A stretch of DNA of 1,349 nt, taken from a phage. The stretch lies in sequence record AF017621.1. One strand, 5' to 3'. Shown here one piece after another: positions 1 to 1,349 of the stretch (the first letter of the stretch is position 1; each line of letters starts with the position of its first letter). The notes under the pieces were generated by a model, which was given only the letters and a program-made list of their open reading frames with translations, was not told the origin of the DNA and made no database searches. The position numbers were made by a program, and so were the translations under genes.

Positions 1-165
1 ATGCTGCGCCACATGGGTTGGACCGAAGCCGCAGACCTGATTGTTAAAGGTATGGAAGGCGCAATCAATGCGAAGACCGTAACCTATGACTTCGAACGTC
101 TGATGGAAGGCGCTAAACTGTTGAAATGTTCAGAGTTTGGTGACGCGATCATCAAGAACATGTAA
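1..165 (+). CDS. icd: Isocitrate dehydrogenase (NADP-dependent), C-terminal 54 codons plus stop; 5'-partial, the gene continues upstream of the window. It could alternatively be a displaced icd 3' pseudogene fragment (icdC-like) if the full gene is not upstream.
   Basis: Frame 1 translates without a stop to [54 protein letters not shown] then TAA at 163..165. This is near-identical to the C-terminus of E. coli Icd as I remember it. The six-frame track omits it, presumably only because it is short and truncated. Confidence 0.9.
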
Positions 166-188
166 TCTCTACATGTGTTAAATATTGA

Positions 189-218
189 AACGGGCGTGTT
201 ATACGCCCGTTGTTTTAT
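189..218 (+). terminator. Rho-independent terminator downstream of icd; possibly weakly bidirectional and also serving the convergent int transcript.
   Basis: Perfect 9-bp stem AACGGGCGT (189..197) pairing with ACGCCCGTT (203..211), 5-nt loop GTTAT (198..202), followed by the T-rich tail GTTTTAT (212..218). It sits 24 nt after the icd stop codon. Confidence 0.6.
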
Positions 219-232
219 GATGATGTAAAATC

Positions 233-268
233 TTCCCCAAAACTTTCCCCAAAACCCTTCCCCAAAAC
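233..268. repeat. Three tandem direct repeats of the 11-mer TTCCCCAAAAC, starting at 233, 245 and 258 (spacers of 1 and 2 nt). Candidate arm-type (P'-arm-like) integrase binding sites of the attachment region.
   Basis: Exact 11/11 identity in all three copies, read directly from the sequence. They lie in the 113-bp gap between the icd stop and the int stop, which is where lambda carries its three tandem P' arm sites relative to int. The function is inferred; the repeats themselves are certain. Confidence 0.5.
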
Positions 269-278
269 TGGCTATTTT

Positions 279-1349
279 CTATGCTGTTTTGATATCTACG
301 ATAACCCAGTCTTTACCACGATCATCATTGTATCGGTCGGTCATTTTTCTGGATTTATGGCCTAACAACTTTTGCGTATCCAGACCCTGTTCCCGATATA
401 ACCGTTCTGACAGAGATCGCTGCTCATGAAATGTGGGCGCAGTTCCTTGCTCCCATTTTATGCCACATTTTTCCCTGGCCTTTTTAAAAGCCGTTGTCAG
501 AGTATTTGCAGAAACCTGGTCTCCTCTGTTTGCTTGAGAGGTAGTGTGACGGTAATGGACCAGATATTTACTAACAACAGCATCCCTGCACTGAGATATA
601 ACTTCACGAAGGGTAATATTCAGAGCATCGCATTTCAGGTTAAGCGGAATAGCAAGTTTTGAACCGGTTTTTTCCTGAGTAATGTGCAACATGTCGTCCC
701 ATATATCAGAGAATTTCAAATTGCAGATATCGCCTAAACGTTGTCCAGTAACAAGAGCAAGTAGCATGCCGCATTTTAAATAGGGCTGCCGTCTGCTTAC
801 GATTTCAAATATTGCCTGCCATTCGGGCAGTGACAATCTTTGGCGGTTTACTCGATTTCGCGGTTGTTTTGTTGCCTGCGCTGGGTTAAATCCTGGCGGA
901 ACATGTCCTGCGTGTTGTGCTTCTTTGAAGACGTCGATCAACACCATTCTCACGACTTGCGCCATCCTGTTATGACCTTCAGCCTTTACAGCATCAATTA
1001 TTTCGGCAATATCAAGTGCGGTAATATCCTTGAGGTGTTGCATTCCACAATGCTCACGGAAAAGACGAATGGGTTTGCCTTTTTGCCGATAGGAGTTGGG
1101 TCTTAGTTCATTATGTTGCAGCCTGTCCTCCTGGATAGAAATATATTTATCAAGCCATTCTGTCACCGTAATGTCTGAGCGCCTGCCTTTCATTCTTTCC
1201 AGACGCTCATTGACGCTTAATATTTGTCTGGTACGTTGTTCAGCAATAATGGTATTTGCTTCAGTAGCAACTTGTTTTGCTTCATTCTCATCAGTTCCTA
1301 AGCTATGAAAACGACCGGATAGTGGATGTTTGTATTGCCAATATACCTT
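279..1349 (-). CDS. int: Lambda-family tyrosine recombinase (phage integrase), e14 IntE-like; 5'-partial, with the N-terminal arm-binding domain continuing past position 1349.
   Basis: The 304-aa ORF (279..1193) matches lambda Int motifs with the lambda spacing: R152 in TGQRLGD (lambda TGQRVGD), K175 in KTGSKLAIP (lambda KTGVKIAIP), H256 and R259 in PTFHEQRSLSERLY (lambda PTFHELRSLSARLY), H279 in LLGHK, and the nucleophile Y288 in DRYNDDRG (lambda QYRDDRG; codon at 330..332). The frame stays open from 1194 to 1349 and encodes KVYWQYKHPLSGRFHSLGTDENEAKQVATEANTIIAEQRTRQILSVNERLER, which resembles the lambda Int N-terminal domain (YYCYRDPRTGKEFGLGRDRRIAITEAIQANIEL). The Met at 1191..1193 is therefore internal, not the start. 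Confidence 0.95.
   Translation of the reverse strand, partial: KVYWQYKHPLSGRFHSLGTDENEAKQVATEANTIIAEQRTRQILSVNERLERMKGRRSDITVTEWLDKYISIQEDRLQHNELRPNSYRQKGKPIRLFREHCGMQHLKDITALDIAEIIDAVKAEGHNRMAQVVRMVLIDVFKEAQHAGHVPPGFNPAQATKQPRNRVNRQRLSLPEWQAIFEIVSRRQPYLKCGMLLALVTGQRLGDICNLKFSDIWDDMLHITQEKTGSKLAIPLNLKCDALNITLREVISQCRDAVVSKYLVHYRHTTSQANRGDQVSANTLTTAFKKAREKCGIKWEQGTAPTFHEQRSLSERLYREQGLDTQKLLGHKSRKMTDRYNDDRGKDWVIVDIKTA

Follow-up and report, generated by a model that had tools for sequence, protein, structure and literature searches.

A phage 21-type integrase and a replacement icd 3' end at a prophage junction in Escherichia coli

The icd 3' end, the integrase and the spacer between them

The window, by which we mean the whole stretch of 1,349 nucleotides that was analysed, opens on the 3' end of icd (positions 1-165, plus strand), which comprises the last 54 codons and the TAA stop and encodes Icd residues 363-416. 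The translated fragment matches the C-terminal end of the Pfam Iso_dh profile (profile positions 301-348 of 348, E 1.5e-6), and the same 165 positions are annotated as icd in every E. coli match. From position 279 to 1,349, on the minus strand, the window is occupied by codons 25-380 plus the stop of a phage 21-type integrase gene that is open to the window edge, with its TAG stop at 281-279 and its first 24 codons beyond the window. The two genes converge tail to tail with 113 bp (166-278) between their stop codons, an arrangement that the first-pass annotation had described correctly as the icd 3' end facing a lambda-type integrase.

The window integrase matches lambda Int (PDB 1z1b) with E 2.7e-54, aligned over its length, and the equivalents of R212, K235, H308, R311, H333 and Y342 of lambda Int are all conserved. 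Residues 1-24 of the arm-binding domain lie outside the window; a full-length 380-aa relative, in which Pfam finds Arm-DNA-bind_1 (PF09003, 1.7e-28) and Phage_integrase (PF00589, 1.1e-23), completes the placement of the protein among the lambda-family integrases. Of its 356 aa in the window, only four differ from phage 21 Int (~99% identity), while identity to e14 IntE is 60%; for the 380-aa integrase of SC516, one of the close relatives described below, identity to phage 21 Int is 99.2%. The int gene of the window differs from that of SC516 at one nucleotide, position 802, with A here and C in SC516, which replaces S207 by I in the minus-strand gene; this base-by-base comparison was made with SC516 only, and phage 21 Int also has S at codon 207. 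The 20 best complete-genome matches are all 99.9% identical and none reaches 100%, and S207I would seem to be a private Int substitution, of the order of ordinary polymorphism. Plus-strand ORFs of 78-88 aa antisense to int were treated as spurious.

Peptide comparison distinguishes four versions of the last 54 Icd residues. The host original, present at SC516 attR and in K-12 icdC, reads ...LMEGAK...GEAIIENM; the e14 copy, fused to icd in K-12, reads LMDGAK...GDAIIENM; the copy in the phage 21 genome reads LMEGAK...GDAIIKNM; and the window ends in ...GDAIIKNM, exactly the phage 21 version. After its first codon the window peptide is identical to that of the phage 21 icd' pseudogene, and given this exact match we take the icd 3' end to be phage-supplied. 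The peptide identifies this icd end as a replacement copy carried by the phage and not the host original, from which it departs at two residues, with D410 and K414 in the window against E410 and E414 in the host (E410D and E414K). A replacement 3' end brought by the element itself is what the first-pass annotation had proposed for this locus.

Downstream of the icd stop lies an intrinsic terminator (189-218, plus strand), the hairpin of which (189-211) consists of a 9-bp stem, AACGGGCGT/ACGCCCGTT, and a 5-nt loop, and is followed by GTTTTAT. The stem is a perfect inverted repeat, the feature is matched by a terminator scan and folds with -19 kcal/mol (z -3.6), and a homologous terminator is annotated in phage 21 OL657228. 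Phage 21, SC516 attR and K-12 icdC have ATAAC as the loop, of which the GTTAT of the window (198-202) is the exact reverse complement; the three substitutions that separate the window from phage 21 here together amount to an inversion of the loop. Among free phages, 2E9 and D2 have the loop as in the window and ev207, Perceval and phage 21 have it in the opposite orientation, and host-side copies also carry both orientations, e.g., AR_0006, which is 100% identical over window 166-218. This stem-flanked terminator loop appears to flip recurrently.

Three tandem dodecamers, TCTTCCCCAAAA, CTTTCCCCAAAA and CCTTCCCCAAAA, follow at 231-242, 243-254 and 256-267 on the plus strand, and form three Int arm-type sites of a putative P' arm (231-267). 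All three are exact matches to YYTTCCCCAAAA, a count reached in 0 of 200 shuffles, and the dodecamers also form a direct repeat family; in the homologous stretch of OL657228, attP is annotated as three subsites, P1P2P3, with the consensus YYTTCCCCAAAA. From that annotation and from lambda P'1-3, we infer that Int would bind the dodecamers at 231-267. A fourth dodecamer lies 130 bp to the left of the core in phage 21 (the P arm), the same site is present in the SC516 attR flank, and the outermost arm sites of phage 21 attP span 397 bp. An Rfam scan of the spacer returns sub-threshold chance matches only (L20_leader, 20.4 bits vs a gathering score of 58.7; tpke11, 20.1 vs 43) and no known sRNA, unlike the C0293 found downstream of icd in e14. 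The IHF consensus WATCAANNNNTTR gives two one-mismatch matches, which 114 of 200 shuffles equal and which is thus chance level, and a promoter scan gives a single weak minus-strand match, inside int and below shuffle expectation.

Attachment site and crossover

BLAST comparison of window 1-281 with SC516 attR matches positions 2-218 at 93%. An alignment of SC516 attL and attR with phage 21 attP reveals that the homology begins at window position 2 and ends past the T-run of the terminator, with attP and attB unrelated to the left of position 2; the resulting phage/host block of 217 bp (2-218), shared between attP and the host icd 3' end with its terminator, is present here as the P' copy. The alignment of both icd copies had been recommended in the first-pass annotation as the way to locate the crossover, and allele comparison of attP, attB and attR does leave 2-17 as the identity block that must hold the core. 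Phage 21 attP equals the empty attB over 2-17, and since SC516 attR combines the phage left flank with the host allele T18, the exchange falls within this block. The crossover would lie, then, at the left edge of the homology, in 2-17, and probably more narrowly in 2-11. In K-12, identity between the attL and attR of e14 is limited to 1-11 (ATGCTGCGCCA), and at position 12 the attR allele is the one found in the e14-cured K-12 AG100; together these observations place the e14 crossover within 1-11. The window allele C12 is found in the attP of the free phage ev207 and in no genome on the reference host haplotype, a pattern that is consistent with a phage-derived position 12 and a crossover to its left. 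TTA occupies positions 4-6 in phage 2E9 and EC38, and mosaic copies (L022, L010, EC38 and 2E9) reflect secondary exchange across the homology, so that allele tracking is blurred at the scale of a 7-bp overlap.

A composite attB, assembled from the left side of attL and the right side of attR, matches uninterrupted icd-iraM sites at 100%, e.g., in strain 720632, and an empty icd-iraM site is present in ~3040 of 5426 complete E. coli genomes. The icd body on the host side, to the left of the att core, reads ...CTCTCCGCTGAGATG. The attL and attR of e14 and of 21-type elements have the same homology boundary, with integration 165 bp before the icd stop. Wang et al. are said to have reported in 1997 a minimal attP of 366-418 bp and an icd homology of 209 bp, and these figures are consistent with the 397-bp dodecamer span and the 217-bp homology found here. 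In K-12 AG100 (NZ_LN832404.1, L030 601-768), icd carries an 84-bp in-frame tandem duplication across the att core and is annotated as 1335 nt, not 1251; the duplication may be genuine, as a scar of excision, or may have arisen in assembly.

Within the icd segment, positions 1-29 match the e14 attL of K-12 (C12, T18, C24) and positions from 30 on have phage 21 alleles (C30, A33); the e14-like first 29 bases mean that the P' segment is not pure phage 21. We offer tentatively, at somewhat less than an even chance, the reading that segment 1-165 is a recombinant, e14-type over 1-29 and phage 21-type over 30-165, with the loop flipped, and that there is continual exchange of sequence among e14, phage 21 and the host copy across the 217-bp homology. 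Tandem lysogens, serial occupancy or gene conversion could provide the routes of exchange. If this is true, the att region would evolve as a three-way recombining locus, with the identity of the feature unchanged. Other copies (L022, L010, ev207 and EC38) are mosaics with different switch points, and mosaic icd 3' ends in natural E. coli were already described in the 1990s.

Identity of the element and its proposed mode of insertion

The window almost certainly represents attL, the integrase-side junction at which a phage 21-type lambdoid prophage is inserted in icd of Escherichia coli. Over window 2-1349, identity to phage 21 (M61865, OL657228) is 98.1%, and identity to ~25 other sequenced 21-like phages ranges from 98.1 to 98.6%. 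The homologous stretch of OL657228 is annotated, in order, with an icd-like pseudogene (last 53 aa of ICDH), a terminator, attP P1P2P3, a tyrosine integrase and an excisionase, and its icd pseudogene, terminator, dodecamers and integrase have counterparts at the corresponding positions of the window. Just one base in the window is host-side, namely the A at position 1; host icd and the e14 P arm share it, and seven 21-type P-arm contexts (six attP, one attR) have C instead. We consider the state to be integrated because of this A and because all matches of at least 99% are chromosomal; position 1 taken alone, as a single base, is weak evidence for choosing between attP and attL. The earlier description of the locus as the int-side junction of an icd-targeting element is borne out, the junction being attL with its homology boundary at position 2, and so is the suspicion that the element differs from e14; that it is phage 21 had gone unrecognised.

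How far the e14 alternative can be taken is limited by the integrase. An e14-type cryptic prophage with IntE, as in E. coli K-12, shares attB and has its boundary at the same distance of 165 bp from the icd stop (the annotated start of e14 is 1196209 and the last position of icd 1196373), and its K-12 attL is identical to window 1-29; however, the window follows phage 21 alleles from position 30, the e14 icd copy differs from that of the window by its LMDGAK...GDAIIENM end, and Int stands at 60% to IntE vs ~99% to phage 21 Int. In MG1655, moreover, C0293, ymfD, ymfE and lit (3.3 kb) separate icd from intE, in agreement with the several genes that the first-pass annotation had placed there, whereas the icd-int gap of the window has no intervening genes. 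Integrase identity and gene order rule out e14, and the chance that the element is of this type is negligible. A closer competitor takes the same phage 21 sequence and places it elsewhere, in the attP of a 21-like phage that is free or has excised, or at the internal junction of a double lysogen with e14 and 21 in tandem. All sequence from position 2 on is phage-borne in free phage genomes, and in L011 (IMGVR_UViG_3300029745_000183) a tandem junction, made of the right end of e14 followed by a 21-type P' and int, likewise shows A at position 1. The host-like A at position 1 in place of the C of 21-type P arms argues weakly against this placement. Against it, too, each of the 20 best matches (99.9%) is an attL site in a chromosome, preceded by icd, and we rate the placement as improbable.

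The state of the element is a separate matter from its identity, and the integrase could be a stranded remnant without any conflict with our main explanation. The prophage would in that case have eroded and lost attR, excision would no longer occur and icd would be permanently fused to the phage end. Such a fate is seen in EF7-18-51, 99.9% identical over the window, which retains int-xis-IS1-holin-lysozyme-Rz-trkG-IS1 only, has lost attR and the neighbouring host genes and has only one icd-like place in its genome, and SC516 and MRE162 are also IS1-eroded and devoid of head and tail genes. Both junctions are kept in SC516 and MRE162, however, and int in the window has an open frame that encodes every catalytic residue, so that we hold the stranded remnant to be unlikely, if well within reason.

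For the phage 21-type prophage that we favour, a coherent mode of insertion can be proposed. Phage 21 Int, a tyrosine recombinase of the lambda family whose N-terminal domain binds arm sites, would recombine attP with attB 165 bp before the icd stop. An insertion there would truncate an essential-pathway enzyme, which would explain why the phage carries the last 165 bp of icd and the terminator to the right of the crossover. Once inserted, the host icd body would be fused in frame to the phage copy, yielding Icd E410D + E414K, and the host's original 3' end would be displaced to the far prophage end as a pseudogene (attR). The three dodecamers between the phage icd copy and int would serve as the P' arm sites for Int, and the fourth dodecamer, in the P arm, would come to lie at attR upon integration. 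Int would bridge arm and core sites and cut at the left edge of the homology, with icd remaining functional, and Xis would direct excision, as in the lambda paradigm and the phage 21 literature (PMC3530522, PMC10111431). In relatives, xis overlaps the int start just outside the window. The core-P' distance of ~215 bp would follow from the need for attP to carry the gene end and the terminator. The catalytic residues are intact, and Int-dependent integration and excision at icd are predicted for such a module; this particular element may still be able to excise, with two reservations about its Int, the S207I change and the 24 codons that lie beyond the window.

Phage 21 (genus Jouyvirus) and the 21-like phages (ev207, 4A7, 1H12, Perceval, 3W, 1W and D2) are 98.1-98.6% identical over the whole window and have the same order of icd', terminator, three dodecamers, int and xis. 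The window differs from phage 21 in four Int substitutions, one of which (S207I) is absent from both SC516 and phage 21, in e14-like alleles at 12, 18 and 24, and in a terminator loop opposite to that of phage 21 and the same as in 2E9 and D2. With e14 (intE, xisE, icdC), the window shares the attB, a replacement 165-bp 3' end and a lambda-family arm-binding integrase, and in both systems restriction genes adjoin attR (mcrA in e14, AAA ATPase and McrC in SC516 and MRE162). The e14 element differs in its Int (60%), in the 3.3 kb of cargo (C0293, ymfD, ymfE, lit) between icd and intE, and in its Icd-end substitutions, and the Int/Xis specificities of e14 and phage 21 are non-interchangeable (PMC3530522). 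The icd helper prophages of PICIs (50icd/61icd, Eco160.55.icd; PMC10111431), compared here by integration site and prophage type, use the same site and are lambda-like; neither the window nor any of the relatives examined has a visible satellite. The likeness to lambda extends to Int architecture, catalytic residues, the three tandem P' arm sites between core and int and, in relatives of the window, the overlap of xis with the start of int. Lambda integrates between gal and bio without gene repair, whereas the system in the window repairs icd and has a core-P' distance of ~215 bp that accommodates the icd end and the terminator.

These features belong to a well-described system. Phage 21 is stated in PMC4129442, after Campbell et al. 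1992, to replace 165 bp of the icd 3' end, and PMC10111431 presents icd, after Wang et al. 1997, as a well-known prophage site; the use of icd by phage 21 is called 'well-known' in the literature (PMC10111431, PMC4129442, PMC3530522), and phage 21 and e14 occupy the same site with different specificities (PMC3530522). The element is already known, and the window departs from it only by ordinary polymorphism, i.e., S207I, the e14-like first 29 bases and the flipped terminator loop. The phage 21 att/int region (M61865) was sequenced around 1991 and the icd arrangement was described in the early 1990s; it is textbook knowledge and Campbell's classical system.

Prevalence, relatives and significance

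We counted the junction as present where at least 80% of the window is found in one place and find it in 1625 of 5426 complete E. coli genomes, about 30%. Three genomes that are 99.9% identical over the window, MRE162, SC516 and EF7-18-51, were inspected. The MRE162 element (26.2 kb) is composed of int-xis-exo-bet-gam-kil-cIII-ral-sieB-N-cI-cro-cII-O-P-ren-nin-Q-lysis-trkG, with IS1 in place of the head and tail genes, and at its right end has an acyltransferase, an invertase remnant, an AAA ATPase with McrC, and attR. SC516 (23.1 kb), another version eroded by IS1, shares the right end of MRE162, while in EF7-18-51 the remnant is reduced to int-xis-IS1-lysis-trkG-IS1, with attR deleted by IS1 and the adjacent host genes lost. 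All three relatives examined carry IS1-eroded, defective prophages. A second icd 3' fragment downstream, which the first-pass annotation had expected, was looked for in these relatives: the displaced host fragment is found 23.1 kb (SC516) and 26.2 kb (MRE162) downstream, with int-xis-exo-bet-gam-kil-cIII-N-cI-cro-cII-O-P-Q-lysis genes between, and is lost in EF7-18-51. The suggestion that the cargo lies to the right, and is where defence genes should be sought, likewise agrees with MRE162 and SC516, whose cargo there includes defence-type genes, in a lineage where the prophage is defective.

The AAA ATPase and McrC form a McrBC-like pair just inside attR (SC516 L002 718-3791; MRE162 L031 11330-14403), which matches the position of mcrA in e14; the ATPase is matched by PADLOC restriction-enzyme models only (E 4e-17). 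A DUF3800 protein encoded between Q and holin (MRE162 L028 33493-34296) gives a PADLOC match to PDC-M04A, a candidate defence family (E 3.4e-34), and its gene is cut by IS1 in the SC516 copy (L001 26206-26646). The trkG gene, which in K-12 belongs to the Rac prophage, directly follows the lysis cassette in all three relatives (L001 28242-29699; L028 35892-37349; L029 22423-23880), and in MRE162 and EF7-18-51 it has IS1 on its flanks. In L011, at ~3853-3920 on the minus strand, an e14 P arm stands to the left of the att core and a 21-type P' with int to the right, and by its sequence this is a tandem arrangement of e14 and a 21-type element at icd. An icd 3' end with CTTCCCCAAAAC-type repeats and a convergent integrase is also found, at 72-74% identity, in Kosakonia, Trabulsiella, Buttiauxella and Mangrovibacter (L020, L021, L023, L026), and the presence of this icd module in other Enterobacteriaceae genera means that the 21-type module is not confined to E. 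coli.

As a discovery the junction carries little weight; it is a classical case of a prophage that inserts into and repairs a housekeeping gene, and its practical value is in annotation. A variable lambdoid prophage has its left end here, and at the right end of that prophage the closest relatives have a restriction-like module of AAA ATPase and McrC, and an acyltransferase. About 30% of E. coli genomes have phage DNA as the final 165 bp of icd, and this affects the use of icd in MLST and in phylogenetic analysis.
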